This document shows, in pieces, positions 332 to 62,955 of a stretch of 64,000 nt of DNA. The DNA is from Candidatus Parcubacteria bacterium (GTDB lineage Bacteria > Patescibacteriota > Minisyncoccia > UBA6257 > HR35), in NCBI GenBank assembly GCA_026004535.1, contig BPJI01000001.1, forward strand, positions 324,523 through 388,522, in the 5' to 3' direction. The first letter of the stretch is position 1, and each line of letters starts with the position of its first letter. Under the pieces are notes generated by a model. That model made no database searches. It was not told the DNA's origin and saw nothing but the letters and a program-made list of their open reading frames with translations. A program made the translations under genes and the position numbers.

Positions 332-1858
<1,527 letters not shown>

Positions 1859-13299: not shown

Positions 13300-13660
13300 C
13301 GCTGAGAGCATTATTTTACCCGGATAAATACCGGATTATTTTACCCGGATAACCAACCGGATAATGTTTACCCGGATGAATACCGGATATTAAAATATCT
13401 ACCCGGATAGTCAACCTGATAGATCACCCGGATTATTACTGTATAAATCTGGTTTAAATCCGGGTAGTTATATCAGGTTAATATCCGGGGGATTATATCT
13501 GATTTAAATCCAGGTAACTTATCCGGTCATAATCCGGGTATTTGTATCCGCTTTGGATCAGGGTAGCTTATCCGGTTTAAATCCGGGTGCTATTATCCGG
13601 TTAATATCCGGGTAATTATATTTTCTCCTGCTGTCCGCGGTGAATAATTCTTCCGTGTTA
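13300..13660. repeat. CCGGAT-type periodic palindromic element (about 21-bp phasing), about 360 bp
   Basis: Left half is …tacccggataaataccggattattttacccggataacc…. Right half carries the reverse complements (…atccgggta…atccggt…). Right terminus is CTGCTGTCCGCGGT. Confidence 0.7.
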
Positions 13661-29464: not shown

Positions 29465-31183
29465 ATGAAAAATCCTGAAATTGCAAAATTATTAAGGATG
29501 ATGGGAATTTATTTGCAGATGAAGGGAGTTCAGTTTAAGCCGCAGGCTTATGAGAAAGCTGCTTATTCGATTGAGGCTTTGGATGAGGATATTGAAGAAT
29601 TTATTAAAAAAAATGGCAAAGAAGGATTGAAAAATTTACCCGGAGTAGGGGAGTCAATTGCAGAAAAAATAATTGAATATTTAAAAACAGGAAAAATTAA
29701 AGAACTGGAAGAATTAAAAAAAGAAGTACCAGTTGATGTTGAGACCTTAACTTCAATTGAAGGAGTTGGGCCAAAGATTGTTTATAAACTTTATAAAGCT
29801 TTGGGAATAAAAACAATTGAAGATTTAGAAAAAGCTTGTCGGGAGCATAAAATAAGAAGATTGCCTGGATTTGGAGAAAAAAGTGAAGAAAAAATTTTAA
29901 AAGGAATTGAATTTTTCAAACAAGGTGGAGGAAGAGTAATTTTGGGTTTTATTATTCCCGTGGTTGAAGAATTAGTAAGTTATTTAAAAGAAAGTGGGTT
30001 GGCCAAAGAAGTTGTGCCTGCTGGTTCTTATCGTCGAAAAAAAGAAACAATTGGTGATATTGATATTTTGGCTGTTTCTGATAAACCTGAAAAATTAATG
30101 GATTATTTTGTCAAGTTTCCTGAAGTAAGTAATATTTATGCTCAAGGACCAACTAAAACTATGGTTAGACTAAAAATTGGGCTTGATGCTGATTTAAGAG
30201 TTGTACCCGAAGAAAGTTTTGGTGCTGCGCTGGCTTATTTTACTGGCTCAAAGGATCATAATATTAAAATGAGGGAATTGGCAATTAAGAAAGGATGGAA
30301 ATTGAATGAATATGGACTTTTTGATAAACAGGAAAAAATGATAGCTGGCAGAACTGAAGAAGAAATTTATGAAAAACTTGGTTTAGATTGGATACCACCT
30401 GAGATGAGAGAAAATCGAGGTGAGATTGAATTAGCAATGGAGGGGAAATTACCAAAATTGATTGAATATGGTTCAATTAAGGGTGATTTGCAAGTTCAGA
30501 CAAATTGGACTGATGGCCAAAATTCAATTGAGGAAATGGTTGAGGAAGCAATTAAATTAGGTTTGGAATATATTTGCATTACTGATCATACTAAATCTTT
30601 GGCAATGACTGGTGGTTTGGATGAGGAAAAATTATTAAAGCAGATGGCTGAGATTGATAAATTAAATCAAAAATATAAAGGCAAGATAAAAATTCTAAAA
30701 GGAGCGGAAGTTAATATTTTAAAAGATGGTAGTTTGGATATCAAAGATGAAGTTTTGGCAAAATTAGATTTTGTTGGCGCTGCTATTCATAGTCATTTTA
30801 ATTTACCTCGAAATGTTCAAACTGAAAGAATTAAAAAAGCAATGGCTAACCCTAATGTTGATTGTATTTTTCATCCAACTGGCAGAGTGATTAACAAAAG
30901 ACCTGCTTATGAAGTTGATATTGATGAAATTATTGATTATGCTAAAAAGACTAAGACTATTTTAGAAATTGATGCTTATCCTGATAGACTTGATTTGAAA
31001 GATGAACATATAAGAAAGTGTGTTGAAAAAGGAGTAAAGATGGTAATTGATAGTGATGCTCATTCAGTTTTACATTTAGGTTTTTTAGATTTAGGAGTGA
31101 GCCAAGCACGTCGTGGATGGGCAACGCCGTCCGATATTATTAATACTTTAGCATATGATAAATTCAATTCATTAATTCATTAG
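29465..31183 (+). CDS. DNA polymerase X family protein (Pol-beta-like core plus C-terminal PHP phosphoesterase domain)
   Basis: HhH motifs (GVGESIAEKI, GVGPKIVYKL), palm …GSYRRKKETIGDIDIL…, PHP …ITDHTKSLAMTGG…HSHF…DSDAHS…. Confidence 0.85.
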   Translation: MKNPEIAKLLRMMGIYLQMKGVQFKPQAYEKAAYSIEALDEDIEEFIKKNGKEGLKNLPGVGESIAEKIIEYLKTGKIKELEELKKEVPVDVETLTSIEGVGPKIVYKLYKALGIKTIEDLEKACREHKIRRLPGFGEKSEEKILKGIEFFKQGGGRVILGFIIPVVEELVSYLKESGLAKEVVPAGSYRRKKETIGDIDILAVSDKPEKLMDYFVKFPEVSNIYAQGPTKTMVRLKIGLDADLRVVPEESFGAALAYFTGSKDHNIKMRELAIKKGWKLNEYGLFDKQEKMIAGRTEEEIYEKLGLDWIPPEMRENRGEIELAMEGKLPKLIEYGSIKGDLQVQTNWTDGQNSIEEMVEEAIKLGLEYICITDHTKSLAMTGGLDEEKLLKQMAEIDKLNQKYKGKIKILKGAEVNILKDGSLDIKDEVLAKLDFVGAAIHSHFNLPRNVQTERIKKAMANPNVDCIFHPTGRVINKRPAYEVDIDEIIDYAKKTKTILEIDAYPDRLDLKDEHIRKCVEKGVKMVIDSDAHSVLHLGFLDLGVSQARRGWATPSDIINTLAYDKFNSLIH

Positions 31184-36252: not shown

Positions 36253-36984
36253 ATGAGATTATTTATTGTTCCAACGCCGATAGGTAATCTAAAAGATATC
36301 ACTTTGAGAGGAATTGAGGTTTTAAAACAAGTTGATTATATTTTTTGTGAAGATACAAGAAGAACAAAAATTTTGCTTGATCATTATGAAATTAAAGACA
36401 AAAAATTAATTTCTTATTTTGCTCCTTTTGAAGCAAAGAAAATTCCACAACTTTTAGAAATTTTAAAAAGAAATGAGGCTGCTTTAGTTGTTGATTCTGG
36501 AATGCCAGTTATTTCTGATCCTGGTTATAAATTGATTAAAGCTTGTTTGGAAAATAGTATTGAAATTGAAGTTTTACCAGGGCCAACTGCTTTTTTGACT
36601 GCTTTGATTGGTTCAGGTTTGCCTTTAGATAAATTTTTATTTTTAGGCTTTTTACCTAAAAAAGGATTGGAAAATTATTTTCGAAAAATAAAAGACTTAG
36701 AAGTAACAATTGCTTTTTATGAATCACCAAAAAGAATATCGAAAACTTTAGAAGTTATTAGAAAGGTTTTTGGTAATTGTCAAGTTGTTATTGCTCGAGA
36801 GGTTTCTAAAATTTATGAAGAATATTTAAGAGGAGATATTGAAGAAATAATTGAAAAATTAAAAGATAAAAAATTAAAAGGAGAGATAACCGTTATAATA
36901 CGCAGAACTACGCATAACGAACGCAGAACTAATAAAAATAGCTTCATAGCTTCCTATCAGCTTCAAAGCTTCTCAGCTTCATAG
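36253..36984 (+). CDS. rsmI: 16S rRNA (cytidine1402-2'-O)-methyltransferase
   Basis: MRLFIVPTPIGNLKDITLRGIEVLKQVDYIFCEDTRRTKILLDHYEI… The C-terminal about 30 codons read through CGCAGAACT and GAAGCT periodic repeats. Confidence 0.8.
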   Translation: MRLFIVPTPIGNLKDITLRGIEVLKQVDYIFCEDTRRTKILLDHYEIKDKKLISYFAPFEAKKIPQLLEILKRNEAALVVDSGMPVISDPGYKLIKACLENSIEIEVLPGPTAFLTALIGSGLPLDKFLFLGFLPKKGLENYFRKIKDLEVTIAFYESPKRISKTLEVIRKVFGNCQVVIAREVSKIYEEYLRGDIEEIIEKLKDKKLKGEITVIIRRTTHNERRTNKNSFIASYQLQSFSAS

Positions 36985-37047
36985 CCTCTTTTTATGTATC
37001 TGCTTAATTGTATTTCGCCTTTAAATTTTAGCACAATTTTCCACATC

Positions 37048-41558: not shown

Positions 41559-43319
41559 ATGCCAAAATATATTTTTGTTTGCGGAGGGGTAATGTCAGGA
41601 GTAGGTAAGGGAATCGCTACTGCTTCGATTGCTAAAATTCTATCTTGGCATGGTTATAAAGTAACCTGTCTTAAGATTGATCCTTATGTCAATGTTGATG
41701 CTGGAACGATGAATCCTTTAGAACATGGTGAAGTTTTTGTTTTGAAAGATGGGACTGAATGTGATCAAGATATGGGACATTATGAAAGATTTTTAAATCA
41801 AGAATTGACAAAAGTAAATTATATGACAACCGGAAGTATTTACTTATCATTAATTCAAAAAGAAAGAAGTTTGTTTTTTGATGGAAAGTGTGTTGAAGTT
41901 GTGCCTCATGTTCCCTTAGAAGTTATTGGCAAAATTAATCAAGCGCAAAAATTGACTCAGGCTGAAATTGTGATTACTGAAATTGGTGGTACAGTAGGTG
42001 AATATCAAAATTTACTCTTTCTAGAAGCAGTAAGAATTTTAAAACTTAAAAATCCAAAAGATGTTCTTTTGGTGTTAGTAAGTTATTTGCCTTATCAAGG
42101 AGAAGGAATGGAACTTAAAACAAAACCAACTCAATATTCTATTCGTACACTTAATTCTGCTGGTCTTCAGCCTGATTTTGTTTTAGCCAGAGCTCAATTT
42201 CCTTTAGATGAAAAAAGAAAAGAAAAAATTTCTTTTAATTGCGGAGTACTAAAAGAAAATATAATTTCTGCTCCTGACGAGCATGTTGTTTATAAAATTC
42301 CTTTGAATTTTGAAAAAGAAAAATTGGGCATAAAAATTTTAAATAATTTTGGTTTGAAGCCTAAAAAAGCTCCACCAGATAGTGATTATAAAAAATGGAA
42401 AAATCAAATTGAAAATATTAATCAATTGAAAAAACAAGTAAATATTGGTATTGTAGGTAAATATTTTAAGACTGGAGATTTTGTTTTAGCTGATGCTTAT
42501 ATTTCAGTTATTGAAGCAATTAAACATGCAAGTTGGTTTTTGGGTTATCGGCCAAAAATTGTTTGGTTAAATTCAGAAGAATATGAAAAAGATAAAATAA
42601 AATTAGAGGAATTGAAAAATTATGATGGTATTATTATTCCTGGTGGTTTTGGCTCTCGAGGTATTGAAGGAAAAATTTTAGCGATTAAATATTGTCGGGA
42701 AAATAAAATTCCTTTGTTTGGTTTATGTTATGGTCTTCAACTTATGATTGTTGAATTTGCTAGGAACGTCTGTGGTTTAAAGAATGCTCAGACAACCGAG
42801 GTAAATCCTAGAACAAAATATCCGGTTATTGATATTTTGAAAGAACAAAAGAAATTATTAGAAGAAAAACTTTATGGAGGAACAATGAGATTAGGAGATT
42901 GGGAATGTGAAATAAAAAGAGGTACGATTGCTTGGAGAGCTTATGTAGAACTACGCAGAACTGACACAGAACTTAGCAGAACTGATACAGAACTAGGCAG
43001 AAGATATCAAAAAAATATTTCTGTTAGTTCTGCATTGAGTCAGTTTGTTCCACGCGTCTTAAAAGTTGTAGAAAGACATAGACATCGTTATGAAGTTAAT
43101 CCTAAATATCATAAAATTTTACAAAAGAAAGGTTTTGTTTTTTCGGGTACATCGCAAAAGGATTTATTAGTTGAAATCGGGGAATTGCCACAAAACATTC
43201 ATCCTTTCTTTTTGGGAACCCAATTTCATCCAGAATTGAAATCAAGATTTTTACATCCTCATCCATTATTTGTTGAGTTTATTAAACAGAGTATAATTAG
43301 TAAAAATGAGTATTTATGA
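41559..43319 (+). CDS. pyrG: CTP synthase
   Basis: MPKYIFVCGGVMSGVGKGIATASIAKIL…, GATase …GLCYGLQLM…. In-frame 21-nt x2 repeat insertion at about 42937-43010. Confidence 0.9.
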   Translation: MPKYIFVCGGVMSGVGKGIATASIAKILSWHGYKVTCLKIDPYVNVDAGTMNPLEHGEVFVLKDGTECDQDMGHYERFLNQELTKVNYMTTGSIYLSLIQKERSLFFDGKCVEVVPHVPLEVIGKINQAQKLTQAEIVITEIGGTVGEYQNLLFLEAVRILKLKNPKDVLLVLVSYLPYQGEGMELKTKPTQYSIRTLNSAGLQPDFVLARAQFPLDEKRKEKISFNCGVLKENIISAPDEHVVYKIPLNFEKEKLGIKILNNFGLKPKKAPPDSDYKKWKNQIENINQLKKQVNIGIVGKYFKTGDFVLADAYISVIEAIKHASWFLGYRPKIVWLNSEEYEKDKIKLEELKNYDGIIIPGGFGSRGIEGKILAIKYCRENKIPLFGLCYGLQLMIVEFARNVCGLKNAQTTEVNPRTKYPVIDILKEQKKLLEEKLYGGTMRLGDWECEIKRGTIAWRAYVELRRTDTELSRTDTELGRRYQKNISVSSALSQFVPRVLKVVERHRHRYEVNPKYHKILQKKGFVFSGTSQKDLLVEIGELPQNIHPFFLGTQFHPELKSRFLHPHPLFVEFIKQSIISKNEYL

Positions 43320-44865: not shown

Positions 44866-45744
44866 ATGTATTTATTAGGAGATGTAGGAGGTACAAAAAC
44901 AAGATTGGCAATTATTGATAAAATCTATATAAATTCAAAGCAAGTTTATAGACATCTTAAACAAAATACAAAAATTTTTAACACTCCTCAAAAATATGAA
45001 GATTTTTTAGAATTAATTAAAAATTATATTCTGCGTAGTTCAGCGTCAGTTCTGCGTAGTTCTGCATTAAAAATTTGTTTTGGATTTGCTGGTCTTTTCG
45101 ATCAAAAGAAAGAAAAATTAATTTACTCTCCAAATTTAAAAGATTATGTTGGCAGAAATTTAAAAAAAGATTTAGAAAAGATTTTACATCCGCGTTTATC
45201 CGTGGTACTCGAGAATGATGCTGCTTTAGCTGGTTTAGGAGAAGCATATTATGGAGCAGGAAAGAATTTTAATGTTTTTGGTTATATTACTTTAAGCACA
45301 GGAGTTGGAGGAGCTAAAATTGTTAATAAAAAAATTGATGATAATGTTTTTGGTTTTGAGCCAGGACATTTATTTATTTTAATTCAAAGTAAGACATACG
45401 ATGTCTTACCATTTGAAGTTGAAGAGATTGTTGGTGGTAAAAGTTTAGAAAGAATTTTTAATAAAAAACCGGAAGAAATAAAAGATAAAAAATTATGGGA
45501 TGATCTGAGTAAAATTTTAGCAATATTTTTAGTGAATGTTTCAATTTTTTGGTCTGTTGATAAAATTATTTTAGGTGGTGGATTAACGAAAAGTTTAAAT
45601 TTTAAAAAATTAAATTTTTATATTAATGAATTTAATCCCTTACCAGTTAAAATTAAAGTGATAAAATCAAAATTAGAAGAATTTTCAGGATTATACGGAG
45701 GATTGAGTTATTTAAGAAATACGGGGCATAGCGCAATTGGTTAG
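44866..45744 (+). CDS. ROK-family sugar kinase (glucokinase-like)
   Basis: MYLLGDVGGTKTRLAII…, …LENDAALAGLGEAYYGAG…. In-frame CGCAGAACT-type and palindromic repeat insertions. The last 8 codons run into a tRNA-derived repeat. Confidence 0.65.
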   Translation: MYLLGDVGGTKTRLAIIDKIYINSKQVYRHLKQNTKIFNTPQKYEDFLELIKNYILRSSASVLRSSALKICFGFAGLFDQKKEKLIYSPNLKDYVGRNLKKDLEKILHPRLSVVLENDAALAGLGEAYYGAGKNFNVFGYITLSTGVGGAKIVNKKIDDNVFGFEPGHLFILIQSKTYDVLPFEVEEIVGGKSLERIFNKKPEEIKDKKLWDDLSKILAIFLVNVSIFWSVDKIILGGGLTKSLNFKKLNFYINEFNPLPVKIKVIKSKLEEFSGLYGGLSYLRNTGHSAIG

Positions 45745-47984: not shown

Positions 47985-48375
47985 GATTAACGCAGACAGC
48001 AACAGAAAAAATATTTTCTGCCCGGATATTAACCGGATAAGTTACCCGGATTCTTACCGGATATACTACCCGGATTCTTACCGGATAATATTTCATTATT
48101 TTACCCGGATATTAACCGGATGATAGCTACCCGGATTTAGACCGGATATACTACCCAGCTATAAACCGGATGATTTATAAAATATTTTTTATCCGGTATT
48201 CATATCCGGGTAAAATAATCCGGGTGGCTATCCGGGTAATCTATTCCGGTAAGTTATCCGGGTAAAACAATCCGGTATTTATCCGGGTAATCCATCCGGT
48301 TGACTATCCGGTTAATATTTTAATATCCGGTAATCATCCGGGTAAATAAATATCCGGTTGATTATCCGGGTTAAA
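47985..48375. repeat. CCGGAT-type periodic palindromic element, about 390 bp
   Basis: Left …cccggatattaaccggataagttacccggattcttaccggatatac…. Right half carries the reverse complements …atccgggtaaaataatccgggtggctatccgggtaatc…. Confidence 0.7.
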
Positions 48376-48380
48376 GATAT

Positions 48381-48905
48381 ATGACCAACATCCTTTTACA
48401 ATATTATCAAAAATATCCATTTATTTTTAATTATTTTGATTTTCTGCGTGATTTATTATTAGCTTTCCAATTAATTTTAATATTTAGTTTTATCTTTGCT
48501 TCAAAAAAATGGAAATATATTTTTTATTATTTGTCTATTTTTTTATTTGCTTTTTTAGTCGCAACATTTTTTAAATCTTATTTTCCTTCACTAAGACCAA
48601 TTTCTTATTTTTGCGAAACTCAAAATTTAATCTGTGATGGTCTGCGTTATGATAGTTTTCCTTCTCGACATACGTTGATTTCTTTTGCTTCATCATTAAC
48701 GTTGATTTTTCAAAATTTCAAGCTCGGTATTTTTTCTTTAGCTTTAACAATATTGATTGCTATTTTGAGTTTGCTCTCTCTTCGGCATTGGTTAATTGAC
48801 GTAATTTTTGGTTTTATTTTTGGTTTTATTGTCTTTTGGATTTTGTTTAAACTTTCAAAGTTTTTTAATTGGTTTGATGTTAATCAAAGACAAAGCAAAG
48901 CCTAA
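48381..48905 (+). CDS. PAP2-family membrane phosphatase
   Basis: KSYFPSLRP (KxxxxxxRP), SFPSRHT (PSGH-like), SLRHWLIDV (SRxxxxxHxxxD). Confidence 0.65.
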   Translation: MTNILLQYYQKYPFIFNYFDFLRDLLLAFQLILIFSFIFASKKWKYIFYYLSIFLFAFLVATFFKSYFPSLRPISYFCETQNLICDGLRYDSFPSRHTLISFASSLTLIFQNFKLGIFSLALTILIAILSLLSLRHWLIDVIFGFIFGFIVFWILFKLSKFFNWFDVNQRQSKA

Positions 48906-50660
48906 AAATTCCCTTAAAAAATAAACAAAAGCAATTTTATACGCCACGGATTCACGCCGATTTTTATAATCCACGGATTTACGCGGATTTAGAACGGATT
49001 TACGTGGATTATTATCATTAGGATTTAGGCGGATGTTGTTTCCGGGTAGTATTCTTTCTTTTTCATAAAAGCTATGAATTTTTTTAGCTAAATCAATTAA
49101 ATAATCAGTGAGAAGATGAGGTCTTTTTTCTTTGTAAATTAAATAAATTAAATCTTGTAATTGATGAACCTTTCTTAAAATTATTTTAGCTGAGTCAATG
49201 TCTTTAATTGATAAGAAAACTTTTTGCGCATCAATTATTCGTGTTAATTCGCTTTTTATTCGTGTTAATTCGCGTCCTTTCTCCAAAATACTATTTAACC
49301 TTGCACAAGCATATTGAATATACCAATAAGGATTTTCCTCTGATTCTTTTTTGGCTAAATCTAAATCAAATTCAATCATAGCCTCAGGAGATTTTTGTAA
49401 AAAGAAAAATCTAACAACTCCTGAGTCAATTTCGTCAATTAAGTCTTGTAAAGTGATAAAAACTCCTCTTCTTTTTGACATTCTTAAATATTCTTGTCCT
49501 TTTTTAAGATGAACAAATTGATAAACTATCGGTAAAAATTGGTAATCTTTAATGCCAAAAATTTTTAAAGCGGCTCTCAATCTGCGAGTGTGATCAAGAT
49601 GGTCACTAGCAACAATTAAAATTTCTATCTTATTTTTCTTAAGAAAAAATTTATGGTAATAGTGTAAAATATCAGAGAAAAAATAAGTTGGTTCACCATT
49701 TTGTTTAATTAAAACTTCATCTTTATCTTCACCCAATTTTGTTAAAAGCAAAAACAAAGCTCCATCTCTATTTTCAATTAATTTTTTTCTTTCAAAAATT
49801 CTTAGAACTCTTTTATCTAAATTTTTTTTATAGAGATCCGTTTCAAAGAAGTACCAATCAAAATTAGTGCCAAAATTTTTTAAGGCTTGTTTAATGAGAT
49901 TCTTTAAAATATAATCAGCTACTTTTTTGCCAATTTTTTCTAATATTACAGACTCATGCTGATTTAGAATTGTTTTTATTTCTTCACTCAACTTTTCAGC
50001 AATCTCTTTTAGATATTCACCTTGATAAAAATTGCTTTCCCAATCAAGATAACCTAAATGAGCCAAGACTGTTTTGGCTAAAATCTCAATTTGATTTCCG
50101 CGATCATTAACGTAATATTCCCTAGTAACTCTAAATCCAGCTAATTTTAAAATGTTTGCCAAAGTATCTCCTAAAACAGCACCTCGAGCATTTCCTAAAG
50201 TTAAAGGCCCAGTAGGATTAGCGGAGACATAATCAATATTTAATTTTTGTTTTCGACCATAATTTTGTTGGAAAAATTTTTCTTTATTTTTATAAATTGC
50301 TCTAAATGTTTTTAAAAGCTGATAATCAGAAAGCCAAAAATTTAAGTAATTATTGACAATCTCGATTTTTTTGAAAACCAAGGATTTTCGCGGATTTAAA
50401 ACGGATTTATGCGGGTTATTATCAGCGTTGATCCTTTTTGAAATCTGTGTAAATCTGTGTTTAATTTTATCAATAATTATTTTTTCTTTTTCCGGAGCAA
50501 ATTGTTTTAAAAGAAAAATTAGATTGGTTGAATAATCACCTAATTTTTCATCATCAATTAAAAATACTTTTAATTTTTGTAAAATTTTCTCTGCTTTTTC
50601 TTTATCGATTTCTTTTCTAATTAAATTTTTCAATTTTTGCTCTAAAAGATAAAGATTCAT
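48855..50660 (-). CDS. argS: arginyl-tRNA synthetase
   Basis: …YVSANPTGPLTLGNARGAVLGD…. In-frame CACGGAT-repeat insertions near both ends (48930-49040 and 50380-50420). Confidence 0.85.
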   Translation of the reverse strand: MNLYLLEQKLKNLIRKEIDKEKAEKILQKLKVFLIDDEKLGDYSTNLIFLLKQFAPEKEKIIIDKIKHRFTQISKRINADNNPHKSVLNPRKSLVFKKIEIVNNYLNFWLSDYQLLKTFRAIYKNKEKFFQQNYGRKQKLNIDYVSANPTGPLTLGNARGAVLGDTLANILKLAGFRVTREYYVNDRGNQIEILAKTVLAHLGYLDWESNFYQGEYLKEIAEKLSEEIKTILNQHESVILEKIGKKVADYILKNLIKQALKNFGTNFDWYFFETDLYKKNLDKRVLRIFERKKLIENRDGALFLLLTKLGEDKDEVLIKQNGEPTYFFSDILHYYHKFFLKKNKIEILIVASDHLDHTRRLRAALKIFGIKDYQFLPIVYQFVHLKKGQEYLRMSKRRGVFITLQDLIDEIDSGVVRFFFLQKSPEAMIEFDLDLAKKESEENPYWYIQYACARLNSILEKGRELTRIKSELTRIIDAQKVFLSIKDIDSAKIILRKVHQLQDLIYLIYKEKRPHLLTDYLIDLAKKIHSFYEKERILPGNNIRLNPNDNNPRKSVLNPRKSVDYKNRRESVAYKIAFVYFLREFLGFALSLINIKPIKKL

Positions 50661-53600
50661 TGAAACACTCTTTTAAAAGTGTCATTTAATATTTTTTGAT
50701 AATCTTTCTTACCTTCAGCAACTAAATCCATTGCCTCTTCTAATTTTATAGTAAATTCTTCAGCAACCAAATCTTTGTGTTTTTTAATCAAATAATTATA
50801 AATCTTTTCTCCTAAAGAAACGGGAATTAAATATCCCGAACGATTGAGAACATATTTTCTATCAATTAAAGTTTGAATAATTGTTGAATAAGTTGATGGT
50901 CTACCTAAGCCTCTTTTTTTCATTTCATCAATAAGCTCACCCTGGGTATAATGATATTCTTTTGGTACTTTTTTAATTTTTAAATTCTCAACTTTAAATT
51001 TATCTTCAATTAAATTAAAAATTTTTATATTTTTAAAGAATTGAAGATGATTGCCTTCAGTAATTTCAACAAAAGCCTCTTGTGTTTGCTTATATAAAAC
51101 AAATTCATGGTTACTTGTTTTAAGGATTATTTCAATTTCTGTTTTTTTGCCTTTGCTTGGTTTCATCTGAGAAGCGATAAATCTATTAAAGATCAATCCG
51201 TAAAGCTGTAAGTGTTTTTTAGTCAAATTTTTTTGTTCTAAAATCATACTTTCAATAAGATCTTGGACATCTAACGGTTTTGTCGGTCTTATTCCTTCAT
51301 GAGTACCAATTTCTCCCCAAGCTCGTTTATAAAACAAATCTTTTAAATTCTTTCTTTCTAAATATTCATAGGCAACATTACGACCGAATTCAGAAACGAA
51401 AACAGAATCAGTTCGATGATAAGTAATTAATCCTTGTTCAAAAAGGTCCTGAGCTAATCTCATTGTTATTGGAGCTTCAAATCTAAAAAAACTATTAGCA
51501 TCTTTTAAAAGATTACTTGTATCATAAGGAGGTAGGGGATTAATTGTTTCTTCTTGGGTTCTGTTAAATTTTATTTCAATTTCTAATTCTTGGTTTTTAA
51601 AGGCTGTTTTTATTTCTTTAATAATGTCTTCATTTTCTAAGTAAAAATAAAGAGGAGTAAGTTTTTGGGAATCATTGGGTTGATTTATGCTAACATTAAC
51701 TAAATAATGCTTATTTTTAATTCTTTTTTCTTTTTCTAAAATCCAACCTAAGACTGGAGTCTGAACTCTGCCGGCAGAAAGATTGAGATTTTTAAAATGT
51801 TGTTGAATTTCTTCACTTAATTTAAAACCAATCCAACGATCAGAAATTCTTCTTAAAAGTTGAGCCTTGACTAAATTAACATCAACATCTCTTGGTTCTT
51901 TTATTTTTTTAATGAATTCAGTTTTGGTAATTTCATGAAGCTCTATTCGTTTGATGTTTTGATTATAGGGATAAAGATAGGCAAATAAATCAAAAGCTAT
52001 TTTTTCGCCTTCGGTATCAGGATCAGTGGCTAAATAAATTTTATCAACCTCAAAAGCAATTTTTTGTAAATTTTTTATTAATTCTTGTTTACTAAGGAAA
52101 TTTTGAGAATTACAAACAGGACATTCATTTTCGTTTAAACTTAAGTGGCGCTTACAATTCTGACAAATTTTTAAGGGTTGAAAAACAGGCACAAATTCCC
52201 CTTTTTCTTTTTTGACACCATAATAACCATCTTGATGAGTTAAATCAGTAAAGTGCCCTAAAGTAGCGCAAATATTTAAATGTAGATTTCCTAAGGAAAC
52301 CTCATAAAAAATAATATTAGCCTTAATTCTCCTAGCTGGCTTGCCAAAAAAGTTAGCGATCGTTTTTGCTTTTGTCGGCGATTCAACTAAAACCAAAGCA
52401 GTTTCAATTGGATCTTTAAGAGTAAACTCTTCGCCAGTTAAGACCCTTTCAACAATTTTGCGATCTTTATCAATTTCTTCTAAAATTTTTGTTAAATTAA
52501 TTTCACTAGCATTTTTAAAATTTGCTTCATAGCCTAAGATTTTCAATTTATCTTTTAAATGATTTAAAACTTTTTCATTTTCAGCTAAAATTAAAGCTAA
52601 TCCTTTGGTAAGACCCAGAGGAAAAAGTCGCGAAGTTCTACCTGATGCTTGAATATAGCCACGAGGATCAGAAACAACTAAATAATAATTTAAATTATTA
52701 CCCGGATCATCACTAGATATATTACCCGGATGATTACCGGATAGATGGTTGTTTTCCTTGGAATTTATATTAGTTTTTACTCCATTATTGTTCGCATTGG
52801 TTCGCGTATAGTTCGCATCAGTCTGCGTCATTAGAGTTATTCTTGGATGTTTTTTAATTTTTTCAATAATTTCTTCATCTTTTAAAAATTCTTCAAAAGT
52901 TCTTTTTATTGGTTCGATTTTTTCCTTTAAATTTTTATCAGCCAGAATTGCTTCTTCTTTGAGAAAAGATATTTTTTTAAGAAAATTCAAATTTCTTTCA
53001 ATTAACGATTTTTCATCGACAGTTTCTCTTAATGTTAGGCCTAAAAGAAAAAGATGTAAAGGAGAATAAGATACTTTTAATGGAATCTTAAATTTTGGCA
53101 CACCCAAAAACAAGGCATATCTTACTTTTTGGGGTAAATCAATTCCTCGAGTTAAGGGATTTCTAATATTACTAAAGCCGACAACAACTTGAATTTCATT
53201 TTCTAAAAAAGCTTTTTGATTTTTGGTATTAAATTTTTCATACGAAACAGCATTTATGCTATTTTCTTTTAAAAAATCAATATAATTATTTAAATCTTCT
53301 TTACGAAAATCATCATTTAAAAAAACAAAACCACCAGGACCTAATTTTTTTAGCCAATAGATTGATCTTTTGATTAACGCGATTTTTTGCGAACTATCGG
53401 AAGGAGCGGAAACGAACGCAGAACTATCGGAATGAGCGGAAGAATTGTTTCCGTTTGTTCCGTTTATAATTTCATACACTTCTTCAATGTTTCTTAAATA
53501 AGTTGTTGCTGAGCCAATTTCAAATCCTAAAAGTTCTCGAAAAAGGGCAATTTTTTTTGTTTTTGGAGTTAAAGTGGCTGAAGCAGCAATAATAAGACCC

Positions 53601-54355
53601 TTCTCATCTTTGTTAATATCCATAACTTCAATTGCAGCATAATCTTCTCTATTTTTGGCTTTTCTTTTTTTGTCAATAATTTGGATTGCTCTTTGGATTT
53701 CTTCATCTTTGAATTTAATTAATTTCAAAACTTTATCAATATTTTTTGGTTGTCTGATTAAAGAATCGGCGTCATCAACAAAAACCAAATCAAAATTTTT
53801 AGGAATAATGTCAAAATTTTTATGAAGAAAGTTGGCCGTAGTAAGCAAAATATCAAAATCTTCATTTTTTAATAATTCTTTATCTTCTTTTTCTTTAATG
53901 ATTAAAATTTTTTTATCAGATTTTATATTTTTTAATTTTTTCTCAATCTCACGCAATAAAATTTTTGAAGGGACTAAATAATAAACTTTGCCTGGAAGAA
54001 AATGAGAAATAATGTTACCAAAAGTTGTTTTACCAATTCCGGTAGGAGCAATTATGGAAAAAGATTCTCTTTTTAAGACTCTTTTTGCCCAATAAAGCTG
54101 AAGTCGAAGTGGTTGATGCCCAGTATTTTCTTTAAAAAAATTTATGAATTCTTTTAATTTCTGTAAAACTATGTAATCTTCATTAAAATTCTCCAAGTCC
54201 TCTTTAAGATCGAGATTCTCAGTTATCTTAAATAGGGTTTTTTTAAATCTTTCATAATCTTTATTACACAAGCCATAATTATAGATTTCCTCAAAATTAG
54301 CATCATTTCTATCTATCGGACAAATTTCTAAATAGCGAACGTTTAATTTTTCCAT
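50657..54355 (-). CDS. rgy: reverse gyrase (N-terminal helicase-like domain fused to a type IA topoisomerase)
   Basis: …LQLYWAKRVLKRESFSIIAPTGIGKTTFG…, …DLVFVDDAD…, …ALVLVESPTKAKTIANFF… (TOPRIM), Zn finger CQNCKRH…CPVC. 1232 aa. In-frame repeat insertions at about 52690-52830 and 53390-53460. Confidence 0.8.
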   Translation of the reverse strand: MEKLNVRYLEICPIDRNDANFEEIYNYGLCNKDYERFKKTLFKITENLDLKEDLENFNEDYIVLQKLKEFINFFKENTGHQPLRLQLYWAKRVLKRESFSIIAPTGIGKTTFGNIISHFLPGKVYYLVPSKILLREIEKKLKNIKSDKKILIIKEKEDKELLKNEDFDILLTTANFLHKNFDIIPKNFDLVFVDDADSLIRQPKNIDKVLKLIKFKDEEIQRAIQIIDKKRKAKNREDYAAIEVMDINKDEKGLIIAASATLTPKTKKIALFRELLGFEIGSATTYLRNIEEVYEIINGTNGNNSSAHSDSSAFVSAPSDSSQKIALIKRSIYWLKKLGPGGFVFLNDDFRKEDLNNYIDFLKENSINAVSYEKFNTKNQKAFLENEIQVVVGFSNIRNPLTRGIDLPQKVRYALFLGVPKFKIPLKVSYSPLHLFLLGLTLRETVDEKSLIERNLNFLKKISFLKEEAILADKNLKEKIEPIKRTFEEFLKDEEIIEKIKKHPRITLMTQTDANYTRTNANNNGVKTNINSKENNHLSGNHPGNISSDDPGNNLNYYLVVSDPRGYIQASGRTSRLFPLGLTKGLALILAENEKVLNHLKDKLKILGYEANFKNASEINLTKILEEIDKDRKIVERVLTGEEFTLKDPIETALVLVESPTKAKTIANFFGKPARRIKANIIFYEVSLGNLHLNICATLGHFTDLTHQDGYYGVKKEKGEFVPVFQPLKICQNCKRHLSLNENECPVCNSQNFLSKQELIKNLQKIAFEVDKIYLATDPDTEGEKIAFDLFAYLYPYNQNIKRIELHEITKTEFIKKIKEPRDVDVNLVKAQLLRRISDRWIGFKLSEEIQQHFKNLNLSAGRVQTPVLGWILEKEKRIKNKHYLVNVSINQPNDSQKLTPLYFYLENEDIIKEIKTAFKNQELEIEIKFNRTQEETINPLPPYDTSNLLKDANSFFRFEAPITMRLAQDLFEQGLITYHRTDSVFVSEFGRNVAYEYLERKNLKDLFYKRAWGEIGTHEGIRPTKPLDVQDLIESMILEQKNLTKKHLQLYGLIFNRFIASQMKPSKGKKTEIEIILKTSNHEFVLYKQTQEAFVEITEGNHLQFFKNIKIFNLIEDKFKVENLKIKKVPKEYHYTQGELIDEMKKRGLGRPSTYSTIIQTLIDRKYVLNRSGYLIPVSLGEKIYNYLIKKHKDLVAEEFTIKLEEAMDLVAEGKKDYQKILNDTFKRVFQ

Positions 54356-54378: not shown

Positions 54379-55209
54379 ATGCATCTTAAAGAATTGATTT
54401 ATTCATTAAAAACAGGAGAAGCAATTTTACATTATAATGTTGCTACCCTTGAACAAATAAAAGCTGGAATTTTAGCAGTTCAAGAAACAAAAATTCCATT
54501 AATTTTTGGTGTTTCAGAGGGAGAAAGAAATTATTTGAGCCCTGCTTTAGTAAAAGAGATAATTGATTTTTATAAAAAAGATTTGCCAATCTTTTTAAAT
54601 GCTGATCATTCAAAGAGTTTTGAGACAGCAAAACAAGCAATTGATTTAAATTATGATGCAGTTTTGTTTGATGGAAGTGAACTTACTTTAGATGAAAATA
54701 TAAAAATTACAAAAGAATTAATTAACTATCGAGGAGATAAAAATATTTTAATTGAAGGCGAGATTGGTAAAATTGAAGGTAAATCTGAAATTCAAAAAGA
54801 AGTTGAGGTAAAAAAAGAAAATCTAACTAAAGTTGAAGAAGCAATTAAGTTTGTTGAAGAAACAAAAGTTGATTTATTAGCAGTTTCGATCGGTAATATC
54901 CATGGTATTACCGAAAAAGAACCAGAGCTTGATTTTGAAAGGGGCAGGGAAATAGCTCAAGCCGTAAAAATTCCATTGGTTTTACATGGTGCCTCCGGAC
55001 TTTCTTTAGAAAAAATAAAAAAATGTATTGAAATTGGTTTTAAAATAATCCATCTTAACACTGAGTTTAGAAAAATTTGGAAAGAAAAATTAATTGAGGA
55101 ATTGGGGAAAGAAACAGTAACTCCTTATAAAATTTTAGAACCAGTTGTTGAAGAGATTAAAAAGAAAATTGTTTATTATCAGGTTAGGTTTCAGGATTCA
55201 GGAAGTTAG
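54379..55209 (+). CDS. fba: class II fructose-/tagatose-bisphosphate aldolase family protein
   Basis: …ILHYNVATLEQIKAGILAVQETKIPLIFGVSEG…NADHSKS…LHGASG…. The C-terminus reads through a GGTTAGG-type repeat. Confidence 0.75.
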   Translation: MHLKELIYSLKTGEAILHYNVATLEQIKAGILAVQETKIPLIFGVSEGERNYLSPALVKEIIDFYKKDLPIFLNADHSKSFETAKQAIDLNYDAVLFDGSELTLDENIKITKELINYRGDKNILIEGEIGKIEGKSEIQKEVEVKKENLTKVEEAIKFVEETKVDLLAVSIGNIHGITEKEPELDFERGREIAQAVKIPLVLHGASGLSLEKIKKCIEIGFKIIHLNTEFRKIWKEKLIEELGKETVTPYKILEPVVEEIKKKIVYYQVRFQDSGS

Positions 55210-55232
55210 GTTTTAGGAAATTAGGTTTCAGG

Positions 55233-56579
55233 TTAATTGATTCTTTTCAAAATAATTCCTCCGCCTAAAACGATGTCATCTTTATAAAAAACTATTGATT
55301 GACCTGGGGCAACAAATTTTTGAGGTTCGAGAAATTCAATGAACGCAGACCCTCGCAGACTGTGCGCAGACTTTTGCAGACTATACTCAGATTCACGCAG
55401 AATAAGTTTTGCTTTAACTAAGGGTTGTCTATGGCGAAAACGAACATCAATAATTATAGAATTACCCGGATGATTACCTGATAGATTACCCGGATGATTA
55501 CCTGATAGATTACCCGGATGATTACCGGATGAATAGTTATTGTTTATATAGTCTGCGTAAGTCTGCGTGTAGTCTGCGTGGGTCTTCGTTTTATCTGTAT
55601 TAGTCTGAGGAAACAAAATTTCTTTTTCTAAGATATTAATTTCAGTAATTTCAATTTTTTGGCTATAAAGTAAAGGATGACCTTCTTTAGCAACAACAAT
55701 TAAATTTTCTTCAGGAATTTTTTGAGCTACATAATATGGGCCATCACCAACTTTAATATTAAGTCCATGTCTTTGGCCTTCAGTGAAATAAAAATAACCA
55801 GGATGAGTGCCTAGGATCCTTCCTTCAGTATCAATAATTTTACCTTCTTTTGGTTTTAAATATTGACTTAAAAATTCTCTTAATTTTACTTGGCCAACAA
55901 AGCAAATTCCCATACTTTCCTTCTTCTCAGCAACTGGTAAATTATATTTTTTAGCAATTTCTCTAACTTCAGTCTTTAGCAAATCGCCAACAGGGAAAAT
56001 TATTTTTGAGAACTTTTCTTTTTCAATTGACCAAAGAAAATAAGTTTGATCTTTATCCTGATCTTTTGCTTTTAAAAGATGAATTTCAGATGTATTACCC
56101 TGATGTCCACCGGATATATTACCCAGATAATTACCTGATGAATTATTTCTTTTATTAGATTCTATATTAAGATTGTCTTTCTTATTGTTCGCATCAGTTC
56201 GCGTTAAGTTCGCATCGATTTGCGTTCGAGCATAATGTCCTGAAGCAACCATCTCATAACCTAAATTTAAAGCTTTATCAAAAAATACGCCAAATTTTAT
56301 AAACTGATTGCAGTAGACATCTGGATTAGGAGTTAAGCCCTTTTCATAAGTTCGAATCATATAGTTTATAACTTTTTCTTCAAATTCATCGGTTAAATCA
56401 AAAACATAAAAAGGAATATTTAAAATTTCAGCTACTCGACGAGCATCTTCAGCATCTTGAGGATTACAAAAATCAAAACAATGTAAATGAACACCAACGA
56501 GATTATAACCTTTTTCTTTTAAAAGCAAAGCTGAAACTGAAGAATCAACTCCTCCAGAAAGAAGAACAGCTATTTTCAT
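55233..56579 (-). CDS. mnmA: tRNA-specific 2-thiouridylase MnmA
   Basis: MKIAVLLSGGVDSSVSALLL… PP-loop. Two long in-frame insertions of CCGGAT plus GTCTGCGT repeat DNA (55340-55580, 56090-56230). Confidence 0.85.
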   Translation of the reverse strand: MKIAVLLSGGVDSSVSALLLKEKGYNLVGVHLHCFDFCNPQDAEDARRVAEILNIPFYVFDLTDEFEEKVINYMIRTYEKGLTPNPDVYCNQFIKFGVFFDKALNLGYEMVASGHYARTQIDANLTRTDANNKKDNLNIESNKRNNSSGNYLGNISGGHQGNTSEIHLLKAKDQDKDQTYFLWSIEKEKFSKIIFPVGDLLKTEVREIAKKYNLPVAEKKESMGICFVGQVKLREFLSQYLKPKEGKIIDTEGRILGTHPGYFYFTEGQRHGLNIKVGDGPYYVAQKIPEENLIVVAKEGHPLLYSQKIEITEINILEKEILFPQTNTDKTKTHADYTQTYADYINNNYSSGNHPGNLSGNHPGNLSGNHPGNSIIIDVRFRHRQPLVKAKLILRESEYSLQKSAHSLRGSAFIEFLEPQKFVAPGQSIVFYKDDIVLGGGIILKRIN

Positions 56580-57194: not shown

Positions 57195-57267
57195 TGGACC
57201 CGAGGGGACTCGAACCCCTGACCTCTGCAGTGCAAATGCAGTGCTCTACCAACTGAGCTACGGGCCC
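57195..57267 (-). tRNA. tRNA-Ala (anticodon TGC)
   Basis: Reverse complement GGGCCCGTAGCTCAGTTGGTAGAGCACTGCATTTGCACTGCAGAGGTCAGGGGTTCGAGTCCCCTCGGGTCCA; G3:U70 present. Confidence 0.85.
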
Positions 57268-57273
57268 TTTTTG

Positions 57274-57345
57274 CGCCCCCAACCGGAGTCGAACCGGTAT
57301 TACCACCTTGAAAGAGTGGTGTCCTAACCGTTAGACGATGGGGGC
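57274..57345 (-). tRNA. tRNA-Glu (anticodon TTC)
   Basis: Reverse complement GCCCCCATCGTCTAACGGTTAGGACACCACTCTTTCAAGGTGGTAATACCGGTTCGACTCCGGTTGGGGGCG; paralogue of the 38489 gene. Confidence 0.85.
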
Positions 57346-57465
57346 CTCATTCAGCTTTACAGCTTCCTAGCTTCACAGCTTATCAGCTTCAAAAAATTAT
57401 AATATAATTATTATATCATAGAAGCTTTAAAGCTATGAAGCTTGGAAGCTGATAAGCTATTTTTT

Positions 57466-57536
57466 GTCCCCATAGCTTAATGGAAGAGCACAGCCCTGCG
57501 GAGGCTGGGATGGAGGTTCGATTCCTCCTGGGGACA
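57466..57536 (+). tRNA. tRNA-Arg (anticodon GCG)
   Basis: GTCCCCATAGCTTAATGGAAGAGCACAGCCCTGCGGAGGCTGGGATGGAGGTTCGATTCCTCCTGGGGACA. Confidence 0.7.
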
Positions 57537-57788
57537 ATTGAGTAATTAACATTTTTACCATTTTAGTTTGTTCCACATCTTCCCTGTCCGTTTCCTTCTG
57601 TTTAGTATATGTCGGAAGGAGCAGAAGCGGACGCAGAACCATCGGAAGGAGCAGAAGAATTATTTCCGCTTGTTCCGTATCCTTTTCTGTTTATTCCGCA
57701 TTTTCCATGTCCGTTTCCGTTCATTTCGTTTTTTCCGTGTCCGCTTCTGTTCATTTCGCCTTTAAATTTTAGCACAATTTTCCACATC

Positions 57789-59426: not shown

Positions 59427-60782
59427 ATGGAACCAGAAATTTTAACCAGTTTATCGATTGAAGAAGTTGAAGAGGCTCTTTTGGGTGCGCTTTTAATTGA
59501 TGATGAAGCTGTAATCCGAATTATTGATATTTTAAAACCAGATGATTTTATTAGGAGAGAGAATCAAATTATTTATCAAGCAATTTTAGATTTATTTGAA
59601 AGAAGAATGGGTATTGATTTGGTAACTGTTGGAAGTAGATTGAAAGAAAAAAAACTTTTAGACGAAATTGGTGGCCAGGATTATTTAGTCTATCTAATTC
59701 ATAAAGCACCAACAATTGGTAATGTTTATGCTTATGCTCGAATAATTAAAACCAATAAAGCTAAGAGAGATTTAACTGAACTTTCAAGAAAAATTCAAGA
59801 GTTAATTCAAGAGGGAGGTAAAGATGCTGCTGAACTGATTGATGAAGTCGAAAAAAGAATCTTTTCAATTGCTGAAAGAGTTTATCCTTATGAATTTACT
59901 CCAGTCAGTTCTTTAATTGAACAAAGCTTGAAAAGAATCGAAGATTTACAAAAAGGGATTGTGATTCGTGGCATACCAACTGGTTTTCCTAAATTAGATC
60001 TTTATTTAGGAGGATTCCAAAAATCTGATTTAATTATTTTAGCTTCGAGGCCATCTCAGGGTAAAACTGCCTTAGCTTTAAATATTGCTCGCTATTTAGG
60101 TGTTCAAGAAAAAATTCCAGTTGGTATTTTTTCTTTAGAGATGTCAAAAGACCAAATTATTGATAGATTAATTGCTTTGGAAGCTGGCGTTAGTTTGTGG
60201 CGTTTAAGAACTGGAAGATTGATTAATGAAGGAGATGTTGATGAGCTAGCTCTGGTTTATGAAGCGAGTGAAAGATTAAAAATTGCACCGATTTTCGTTG
60301 ATGATAGTCCTGCTTTAACTGATTTGCAAATAAGAACAATGTCCAGAAAATTAAAGCATGAGATTGGTGAATTGGGTCTTTTGATAATCGATTATTTACA
60401 ATTAATAAGGGCCAACAAACAAATAGAAAATAGGGTTCAAGAAGTTTCAGAAATTTCTAAAAATCTAAAGGAATTAGCTAGAGAATTAGAGGTTCCTGTT
60501 TTGGCTATCTCTCAACTTTCTCGCGAACCAGAAAAAAGAGTTTCTGCAATTCCAAGATTAAGTGATTTGAGAGAAAGTGGAAGTATTGAACAAGATGCTG
60601 ATGTTGTTTTATTCATTCATCGGCCCAAAGAAGGAGCAGCAGCTTTGCCCTCAAATCAAGTAAACATTATAATTGCTAAGCATCGAAATGGACCAATTGG
60701 AAGTATCGATTTATATTTTGATCCTGATACTGTTTCTTTCTATTCAATTGAAGAAGTTGAGCAAGAATTGGAATATCACTGA
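59427..60782 (+). CDS. dnaB: replicative DNA helicase DnaB
   Basis: …SDLIILASRPSQGKTALALNIA… (Walker A), …LLIIDYLQLI…, RecA-like C-terminal domain. Confidence 0.9.
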   Translation: MEPEILTSLSIEEVEEALLGALLIDDEAVIRIIDILKPDDFIRRENQIIYQAILDLFERRMGIDLVTVGSRLKEKKLLDEIGGQDYLVYLIHKAPTIGNVYAYARIIKTNKAKRDLTELSRKIQELIQEGGKDAAELIDEVEKRIFSIAERVYPYEFTPVSSLIEQSLKRIEDLQKGIVIRGIPTGFPKLDLYLGGFQKSDLIILASRPSQGKTALALNIARYLGVQEKIPVGIFSLEMSKDQIIDRLIALEAGVSLWRLRTGRLINEGDVDELALVYEASERLKIAPIFVDDSPALTDLQIRTMSRKLKHEIGELGLLIIDYLQLIRANKQIENRVQEVSEISKNLKELARELEVPVLAISQLSREPEKRVSAIPRLSDLRESGSIEQDADVVLFIHRPKEGAAALPSNQVNIIIAKHRNGPIGSIDLYFDPDTVSFYSIEEVEQELEYH

Positions 60783-61484: not shown

Positions 61485-61720
61485 TACATCGGATGAATTT
61501 ACCCGGATTTAAACCGGATATAATTACCCGGATGTAAACCGGATATAACTACCCGGATGTAAATCGGATAATAGCTACCCGGATTTAGACCGGATGATTC
61601 ATAAAATATTTTTAATCCGGTAGTTTATCTGGGTAAAATAAATCCGATATTAATCCGGGTAATATTTTAATCCGGTATTTATCCGGGTAATCTATCCGGT
61701 TGGTTATCCGGGTAGTTAAG
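61485..61720. repeat. CCGGAT-type periodic palindromic element
   Basis: …tttacccggatttaaaccggatataattacccggatgtaaaccggatataactacccggatg…, then reverse-complement half …atccggtagtttatctgggtaaaataaatccg…. Confidence 0.7.
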
Positions 61721-62744: not shown

Positions 62745-62955
62745 CCGCTGACAGCTGCGGAAATGTTTTAACCACTAGGATGGTCTATTGGATATAGTTA
62801 CCCGGATAACCAACCGGATATCTATTTACCCGGATAACTTACCGGATTATATTTACCCTGATGATTACCGGATAAATCCGGTTTATATCCGGGCAGTGGT
62901 TATCCGGTTTAAATCCGGGTAGAAAATATTTTTCAGCTGCTGTCCGCGGTAAATA
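62745..62955. repeat. CCGGAT-type periodic palindromic element with inverted flanks (CCGCTGACAGCTGCGGAAA … TTTTCAGCTGCTGTCCGCGGT)
   Basis: Seen directly. Shares the right terminus with 13300-13660. Confidence 0.7.

Follow-up and report, generated by a model that had tools for sequence, protein, structure and literature searches.

Repeat-derived, in-frame inserts at three predicted surface loops of MnmA in a Candidatus Parcubacteria bacterium: a probable case of selfish DNA filtered by selection

How can a tRNA-modifying enzyme carry long stretches of repeat DNA in its coding sequence and still bear the marks of a working gene? The locus that raises this question is mnmA, which encodes tRNA 2-thiouridine(34) synthase, in a stretch of 64,000 nucleotides (the window) from contig BPJI01000001.1 of a Candidatus Parcubacteria bacterium. 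The initial annotation described two insertions of about 380 nt (about 125 codons) that leave the frame intact, and presented the gene as an extreme example. The observation is real and the frame is kept, in a single open reading frame (ORF) whose inserts are free of stops; the number and length of the insertions were wrong. Alignments show three sites, two of them composite and the third with one type of array only, and the net excess over the 344-aa form that prevails in the clade is 104 aa (312 nt), or 23% of the protein, allowing for a C-terminus shorter by 4 aa. Extreme it is within the window, but the phenomenon extends across the genome and the lineage, and mnmA is one instance of it. 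We consider it probable that non-coding repeats of a genome-specific family have settled in three surface loops of a functional mnmA, as a selfish DNA akin to the Rickettsia palindromic elements (RPEs) and filtered by selection.

The claim that the PP-loop, catalytic cysteine and C-terminal regions are intact is borne out. Pfam assigns residues 1-229 to PF03054 (HUP/PP-loop; E = 5.9e-69), a match that spans the first insert, residues 235-298 to PF20259 (PRC-barrel; E = 1.8e-19) and residues 369-443 to PF20258 (C-terminal barrel; E = 6.8e-15); together with an AlphaFold model and a Foldseek search, these matches give the three-domain MnmA architecture of catalytic domain, central PRC-barrel and C-terminal beta-barrel. 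The core of the model matches the solved structures 2hma, 2det and 2der with template modelling (TM) scores of 0.86-0.90 normalised to the target (E = 1e-36 to 1e-40). MnmA chains in the PDB match the sequence at E ~1e-65 as three separate stretches, so that two large interruptions are already visible at this level. The database entry for an identical protein reads [quoted passage not shown] (MAG, metagenome-assembled genome). All 66 of the 66 columns that are invariant among 94 homologues are conserved. The SGGxDS motif of the PP-loop domain is present at the N-terminus as MKIAVLLSGGVDSSV, with S8, G9, G10, D12, S13 and S14 invariant, and the same holds for C38, for D87 and C90 (NPDVYCN; the DxxC motif) and for C226 (GICF). 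By alignment, we take C90 and C226 to be the counterparts of the catalytic cysteine pair C102/C199 of the E. coli enzyme.

The conserved core is under purifying selection. Its dN/dS is 0.08-0.11 between the window gene and three insert-free orthologues, as compared with 0.13 between two insert-free orthologues, and the branch of the window protein is of ordinary length among about 70 MnmA proteins of the clade (relatives' loci and proteins are designated by L and P numbers, respectively). No second mnmA is found in the 64-kb window. A tRNA-Glu(UUC) gene (57273-57345) lies 700 nt from mnmA, and this tRNA is of the type on which MnmA acts. By its sequence mnmA is thus an intact gene, and its product presumably 2-thiolates U34 of the Glu, Lys and Gln tRNAs.

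The closest relatives of the protein are overwhelmingly 344 aa long and share 65-77% identity with it overall and ~85-91% in the core, which allows the inserts to be delimited (Table 1). The two unit types that build them are referred to here as P-type (CCGGAT) and Q-type (GTCTGCGT). Sites 1 and 2 are composite, with a Q-type array of three to four units at 10/11-nt spacing, an AT-rich linker and a P-type array. Site 1 follows HYARTQ, where insert-free orthologues read HYAKTQDG/HLL; in the coding sense, it consists of ACGCGAAC-like Q-type units (56187-56226; period 21 in Tandem Repeats Finder, TRF), a 45-nt linker (56142-56186) and ATCYGGGTAAT P-type units (56088-56141). Site 2 follows EINILEKEIL and replaces about seven native codons. 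Here four copies of ACGCAGAC (55549-55597) are followed by a short linker and by a P-type array (55456-55532) made of three exact 24-nt super-units, each encoding GNHPGNLS; TRF finds periods of 24 and 11, and TACCCGGAT recurs at intervals of 24 and 24 nt. Site 3 lies between ..RESE and IEFLEPQK, where the C-terminal barrel makes a hairpin turn. Its Q-type array runs in the opposite orientation (GTCTGCG x4), and its sequence complements the Q-type arm at site 2. The repeat peptides quoted in the initial annotation, ..TDANLTRTDANNKKDN.. and ..NNNYSSGNHPGNLSGNHPGN.., do occur in the translation; ..YSSGNHPGNLSGNHPGN.. and ..TDANNKKDNLNIESNK.. are examples of peptides that run across insert junctions.

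Table 1. Coordinates of mnmA, its inserts and related repeat arrays in the window
Feature	Coordinates	Strand	Description	Basis
mnmA coding sequence (tRNA 2-thiouridine(34) synthase)	55233..56579	minus	448 aa, one open frame	ORF list, Pfam, PDB, Foldseek
Site 1	56088..56226	minus	+44 aa, aa ~119-164	codon alignment with L001, L006 and others
Site 2	~55455..55613	minus	+49 aa net, aa ~323-375	codon/protein alignment
Site 3	55341..55385	minus	+15 aa (YSLQKSAHSLRGSAF)	codon/protein alignment
Sister copy of the composite Q-type/linker/P-type module	52691..52836	minus	in frame in reverse gyrase	
Intergenic palindromic P-type array	13305..13625	none	stops in all six frames	unit matches, TRF
Largest intergenic palindromic P-type array	48015..48375	none	TACCCGGAT/AACCGGAT arm, then ATCCGGGTA/ATCCGGTT arm; stops in all six frames	
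Intergenic palindromic P-type array	61495..61720	none		unit matches, TRF
Intergenic palindromic P-type array	62795..62930	none		unit matches, TRF

The initial annotation had proposed structure prediction as a check on whether the inserts are disordered excursions, and AlphaFold, run with the 94-sequence alignment (predicted TM score 0.80), indeed predicts them as loops of low confidence. The predicted local distance difference test score (pLDDT) exceeds 90 in the core and falls below 50 at residues 125-162, 327-341 and 349-371. The site 1 loop is placed between the strands at 117-122 and 165-170, and that of site 2 between those at 305-316 and 374-380; at site 3, ten-residue blocks over residues 391-410 average 73 and 54, between strands at 388-394 and 412-421. 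All three inserts are thus predicted as low-confidence loops, each flanked by two beta strands.

The inserts are repeat-derived, as initially stated, and both unit types are far more frequent in the window than expected by chance. The P-type 9-mer TACCCGGAT occurs 33 times, at nine loci, against 0.05 expected, and GTCTGCGT occurs 8 times against 0.19, which amounts to more than 40-fold enrichment; no shuffle reached either count. Units are 8-13 nt long and stand in tandem. The initial annotation took the composite inserts for a fusion of two repeat families; they are indeed composite, but from their sequences P-type and Q-type units are better described as two dialects of a single unit, ACVCRGAY, set in opposite orientation. 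All unit types match this consensus, which is found 62 times in the window against 5.6 expected. Arrays of such units cover 4.06% of the window, whereas in the insert-free relatives L001, L007 and L025 they make up 0-0.2% of the syntenic DNA. P-type units also form four intergenic palindromes of 136-361 nt, in which a direct array is followed by its reverse complement; the one that was folded, at 48015-48375, gives a DNA fold of -92.7 kcal/mol (z = -12). Q-type units lie chiefly within genes: 7 of the 8 exact GTCTGCGT copies are genic, and the other (at 47990) is beside the array at 48015. About 20 short-unit arrays are located in ORFs of the window. At the gathering threshold, Rfam matches only the 16S rRNA and nine tRNAs in the window, leaving the arrays unmatched. 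When 55338-55612 of the minus strand is folded as RNA, the arm at site 2 pairs with that at site 3 (minimum free energy -87.8 kcal/mol, z = -7.85, equalled by 0 of 200 shuffles), forming a stem that encloses 57 nt of conserved coding sequence (R380-L387, invariant residues).

A sister copy of the composite insert is found in the gene for reverse gyrase, where it encodes the peptide ..TDANYTRTNANNNGVKTNINSKENNHLSGNHPGNISSDDPGNN.. and is missing from the orthologues in L002 and L007. It aligns colinearly with mnmA site 1 over 148 columns at 70% identity (score 54, as compared with -9.7 +/- 5.8 for shuffled sequences), and the 45-nt non-repetitive linker on its own is 64% identical, a value reached by 7 of 500 shuffles. 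Judging from these alignments, a discrete composite module recurs in the two genes. The initial annotation had gone further and held that intergenic palindromes are copied into coding sequence. This direction is not demonstrated: GTCTGCGT units are mostly genic, and the genic copies of the window are singly non-palindromic. Because the site 1 and reverse gyrase modules are 70% identical and colinear, linker included, copying from gene to gene, or from a common source, appears at least as well supported as copying from intergenic DNA into genes.

Reverse gyrase itself is full length (50657-54355, minus strand; 1232 aa, with DEAD/ResIII helicase, Toprim and topoisomerase IA domains), and a second insert, likewise in frame and of a different unit family (NGTNGNNSSAHSDSSAFVSAPSD), lies at 53393-53467. 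Among the close relatives are genomes named HR35 and KatS3mg097, which we take to be MAGs from hot springs; a reverse gyrase in a Parcubacteria genome with such relatives suggests a thermophilic lineage.

The housekeeping genes of this genome generally harbour repeat arrays in frame, and the frame and period of these arrays differ from those of intergenic ones. In mnmA, reverse gyrase and arginyl-tRNA synthetase (ArgRS), the inserts have lengths divisible by three and no stops in the host frame, while nearly all other frames carry stops, up to 10 of them; the 45-nt insert of site 3 is the exception. At site 1, the frame in use has 0 stops and each of the five others has 2-9. Intergenic arrays contain stops in six of six frames. 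The three TACCCGGAT intervals within genes are 24, 24 and 24 nt, whereas those in intergenic arrays range from 24 to 31 nt and are mostly 25-26, and genic Q-type arrays have a super-period of 21 nt (10+11). Selection on the translated sequence yields just such a pattern of in-frame, stop-free inserts with periods of 21 and 24 nt, which therefore argues against removal at the RNA level; the mnmA inserts are probably translated as loops. The peptides GNHPGN and TDANxTRT recur in unrelated enzymes.

The relatives reveal where inserts occur and how fast they change. Among the ~70 clade proteins, residues are inserted only after reference residues ~122, 278 and 302, apart from five residues in P0074. 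About 45 of the 70 are insert-free, and the insert-bearing proteins are scattered among them. More distant Parcubacteria, with other units and another GC content, have palindromic arrays at the same three loops, down to ~35% identity. A homologue of the site 2 insert, linker included, is present in L003 and L004, at a core identity of only ~71%. In its complete form the element is a nested palindrome of Q-arm, P-arm, p-arm and q-arm, as in the 162-nt insert of L088 and in L002 and L091, and by comparison the genic copies of the window look like half-decayed forms of it.

Length polymorphism, the other check proposed at the outset, is present in close relatives. L088 (398 aa) and L089 (344 aa) share 98-99% identity over a stretch of 7.7 kb, ~4.6 kb of which shows only 4 mismatches, and differ at site 1 by the 162-nt nested palindrome; 11 mismatches are clustered around the insert, five of them at most 9 nt away on the left and six at most 35 nt away on the right. 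Such clustering resembles a short recombination tract bearing the filled allele. At site 3, L090 and L091 differ by exactly 21 nt, that is, by two units in one arm. The same left junction (GCT/MGR ACG C..) is found in the filled alleles of the window, L002, L088 and L091, so site 1 may go back to few origins followed by recombinational spread. With this junction in common, L088 has CCGGAT and L091 has CCGAAT units in both inner arms; therefore the arms change in concert. Dialects are specific to genomes and common to many of their loci, with CCGGAT in the window and CCGAAT in L002, L036 and L091. L001, with an insert-free MnmA, has 0 copies of ACGCAGAC and 0 of ACGGAT in 21 kb; the counts are 15 and 24 in L002, which comes from the same sample and whose Cob(I)alamin adenosyltransferase, YchF, aldolase, ArgRS, TMK and ROK genes contain inserts. 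Repeat load thus tracks insert load among the relatives, and the sequence and length of inserts vary freely between close ones. L088 and L089 also differ by a ~150-nt non-array insertion between aldolase and reverse gyrase (L088 8771-8922, L089 6626-6656) and by their repeat content at one position in YchF (L089 169-268, L088 2203-2237). An assembly artefact was considered and rejected, as homologous inserts are found in independent JGI, ENA and NCBI assemblies.

The elements are tandem arrays of 8-13-nt units with the consensus ACVCRGAY, and the complete element consists of nested inverted arrays with outer arms ACGCRGAC/GTCYGCGT and inner arms TACCCGGAT/ATCCGGGTA, ~130-165 nt in total. On the reading that we favour, they would be selfish and in themselves neutral, multiplying within the genome in intergenic as well as intragenic positions, with unit number shifting through slippage, the two arms kept complementary by concerted change, and filled and empty alleles apparently swapped between strains by short-patch homologous recombination. 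Where an essential gene is hit, the surviving copies would be those that lie in permissive beta-hairpin turns, have a length that is a multiple of three and are stop-free in the host frame. Such copies would be translated as disordered loops rich in Asn, Gly, Ser and Thr, and the enzyme would keep working.

Several observations weigh against this reading. Among the ~50 ORFs of the window, Pfam detects no transposase, RAYT/Y1-transposase (RAYT, REP-associated tyrosine transposase; REP, repetitive extragenic palindromic) or integrase. No target-site duplication is seen at two pairs of empty and filled sites (L089/L088 at site 1, L036/L002 at site 3), and at both, native flanking bases are partly overwritten by unit-like sequence, leaving no clean cut-and-paste junction. 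The genic copies of the window are no longer palindromic: folded singly, they give z = -0.2, +0.7 and +1.3, and the reverse gyrase copy gives z = -1.95. Finally, in several of the distant lineages the fetched 4-11 kb show the mnmA insert unit at no other place, which would fit a local origin rather than spread.

It is possible, and in our estimate distinctly less probable, that the elements are not transposons but the product of a mutational process at work across the Parcubacteria, in which hairpin-templated or ectopically templated synthesis could build the nested arrays, homogenise the dialect of a genome and lengthen housekeeping proteins at the same loops. A family-X DNA polymerase with a PHP domain is encoded at 29465-31183 (plus strand); a role for this kind of gap-filling repair enzyme in the templated or slippage synthesis of arrays is pure speculation.

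It is likewise distinctly less probable than the favoured reading that the arrays arise locally and de novo, without moving from one locus to another: a short quasi-palindrome in an AT-rich, loop-coding stretch would grow by slipped-strand mispairing, keep its symmetry through intrastrand template switching (hairpin-templated correction), and resemble other arrays owing to a common mutational bias. Apart from the lack of target-site duplications and of a transposase, and from the unrelated palindromic units of distant lineages, this account draws on the change by two units in one arm only (L090/L091) and on junctions where native sequence resembling a degenerate unit is overwritten (AAAACTCAAGA as compared with AGGACGCAGAC, and GTAAATATT with CTACGGATT). 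It is opposed by the similarity of the site 1 and reverse gyrase copies, which extends through the non-repetitive linker, by the 33 identical copies of one 9-mer at nine loci within 64 kb, and by the genome-specific dialects, which at so many loci need an exchange of information between loci. A local origin is possible for some lineages, but it leaves the linker common to two genes and the dialects unexplained.

We regard it as unlikely that the inserts are adaptive loops, maintained by positive selection as new surfaces for partner binding, solubility or heat adaptation in a thermophilic symbiont. Their recurrence at the same three loops in many lineages, the site 2 insert common to the window, L003 and L004, and the peptides that recur in unrelated enzymes could be read in this way. 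However, most clade proteins are insert-free, strains that are 98-99% identical differ in the presence of an insert, and the sequence and length of inserts change freely between close relatives; moreover, the peptides follow directly from reading the DNA unit in one frame after another, intergenic DNA is filled with these units too, and the predicted confidence of the loops is below 50.

That mnmA is a decaying pseudogene, its repeats a mark of lost constraint, is very unlikely: although a large part of the protein is low-complexity insert and the host genome is reduced, all 448 codons are open when most alternative insert frames carry stops, every invariant residue is kept, the core dN/dS is like that of insert-free orthologues, the branch length is unremarkable, and the 64 kb hold no second copy. 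Most unlikely of all is that the inserts are removed from the transcript or protein in the manner of introns or inteins, leaving a mature 344-aa enzyme; the long stem that the site 2 and site 3 arms can form, the archease gene in the window and the insertions that Candidate Phyla Radiation genomes are known to carry in rRNA genes would suit it, but removal at the RNA level would lift the constraint on frame and stops that the inserts obey, the strong stem encloses invariant residues and is hence not excisable, single inserts have no significant structure, and Pfam finds no intein domain.

The 16S rRNA gene of the window (333-1858) is of normal length and has no insertion. Two genes for PF05635 proteins ("23S rRNA intervening sequence protein") and the archease gene are found at 9326-9655 (minus strand), 28995-29378 (minus) and 6332-6703 (plus). 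DnaB (59427-60782) is 451 aa long with no intein, and the DnaB of the relative that carries P0009 (L090 1-1883) is 879 aa long with a LAGLIDADG intein. ArgRS (48855-50660, minus strand) has 601 aa, as compared with 532 in the insert-free relative L001; its extra sequence is repeat-derived, with AAATCCGYG units and peptides such as ..NPHKSVLNPRKS.., at 50376-50444 and 48939-49043. Q-type or related short arrays are also present in GyrB (23594-23630), CTP synthase (42947-43002), an RsmI-like protein of tetrapyrrole-methylase fold (36899-36989) and a ROK kinase (45029-45065). Large repeat proteins at 6832-9219 and 9866-12454 (both plus strand) have ordinary domain repeats unrelated to the short-unit arrays: the former combines RCC1-type repeats (114-nt DNA period, 7901-8649) with an endosialidase-chaperone domain, and the latter has 862 aa and a 231-nt period.

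Downstream of mnmA, a 15-nt-period array (AGGTTTCAGGAAATT; 55193-55232) covers the last codons of the gene for fructose-bisphosphate aldolase (tail ..YYQVRFQDSGS*) and occupies all of the space that separates the stops of the convergent aldolase and mnmA genes; several further genes of the window end within or beside short arrays. On the other side, tRNA genes for Ala(TGC), Glu(TTC) and Arg(GCG) form a cluster at 57195-57537, ~0.6-1 kb from the mnmA start codon. They belong to an interval of ~2.8 kb between mnmA and dnaB that also holds a response regulator, a 30-nt-period array (57664-57763) and a pilin-like gene, and that is missing from the syntenic loci of relatives, where mnmA adjoins dnaB.

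No description of such elements in Parcubacteria, Patescibacteria, the Candidate Phyla Radiation or hot-spring Parcubacteria genomes was found in the searchable full-text literature. RPEs are the closest parallel that we considered. They are interspersed repeats of 100-150 bp, intergenic as well as protein-coding, which lie in frame in unrelated housekeeping genes of a reduced genome, proliferate as lineage-specific families and are reported to be compatible with how the host protein folds and functions (PMC10969869; PMC1779305). Likewise, the Parcubacteria modules measure 130-165 nt, occur in mnmA (two) and reverse gyrase, with unit arrays at four intergenic loci, and lie in frame in MnmA, reverse gyrase, ArgRS and others at what are predicted to be fold-compatible surface loops. 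As to palindromy, z ranges from -1.95 to +1.3 for window copies taken singly, is -7.85 for sites 2 and 3 together and -12 for the intergenic array, and the palindrome is complete in L088, L002 and L091. RPE consensus sequences are not known to be tandem arrays of short units; RPEs are unit-length consensus elements encoding a conserved peptide, whereas the Parcubacteria elements are arrays of variable number with nested inverted arms that drift in copy number by frame-preserving steps, and up to three are found in one 344-codon gene. The host, moreover, is a member of the Candidate Phyla Radiation and not of the Rickettsiales. Compared by description rather than by RPE consensus sequences, the elements would be an analogue of the RPEs, not a member.

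[quoted passage not shown] The Parcubacteria elements resemble them in being small, multi-copy, palindromic and sometimes intragenic in frame. They differ in that target-site duplication is lacking at both junction pairs, no transposase domain is found by Pfam in the ~50 ORFs of the window, and there are no terminal inverted repeats distinct from the body, which is itself a tandem array; in complete copies the outer arms ACGCRGAC/GTCYGCGT act as inverted termini. The elements are filed as neither RPEs nor MITEs because of this tandem-array body, the frame-preserving drift in copy number, and the fact that neither target-site duplication nor transposase was found.

REP elements are by definition extragenic, 20-40 bp imperfect palindromes in alternating orientation that are mobilised by RAYTs. 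The present units share with these and with bacterial interspersed mosaic elements the character of short, GC-richer, hairpin-capable palindromic units in an AT-rich background, clustered and genome-specific. However, they are 8-13 nt long, form direct and then inverted arrays, stand in ~20 arrays within ORFs, and have no RAYT-like gene or Y1-transposase match in the window. Hairpin repeats also invade compact organelle genomes, as mitochondrial hairpin elements, double-hairpin elements and the GC clusters of yeast var1; they are occasionally found in protein or rRNA genes, less frequently in the former, at length-variable sites, and are reportedly not removed from transcripts (PMC2800124). 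The Parcubacteria repeats likewise lie within genes of a compact genome, with a different element structure and outside organelles. Like contingency loci, they change by whole units between close strains (the 21-nt step). Contingency repeats switch surface or virulence genes on and off by frameshift; here, in contrast, the main genic periods are 21, 24, 27 and 33 nt, multiples of three, the polymorphism of +21 nt is in frame, and the arrays stand in housekeeping genes with inverted partners.

If the colonisation of mnmA by RPE-like repeats holds, the Parcubacteria would be a second, phylogenetically remote group with reduced genomes that harbours RPE-type hairpin repeats inside essential genes, distinguished by tandem-array architecture and by measurable turnover between strains. 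Should the lineage-wide mutational process prove true instead, it would amount to a new class of repeat DNA that propagates itself with no dedicated transposase, and to a possible general source of protein length expansions across the Candidate Phyla Radiation. The inserts map permissive loops of conserved enzymes, of which MnmA has three, reused across lineages to ~35% identity, and the near-isogenic filled and empty alleles in public metagenomes offer a natural system for the spread of repeat arrays without an obvious transposase. Many Parcubacteria proteins exceed their homologues in length and have odd stretches of low complexity, which annotation and alignment pipelines should expect.

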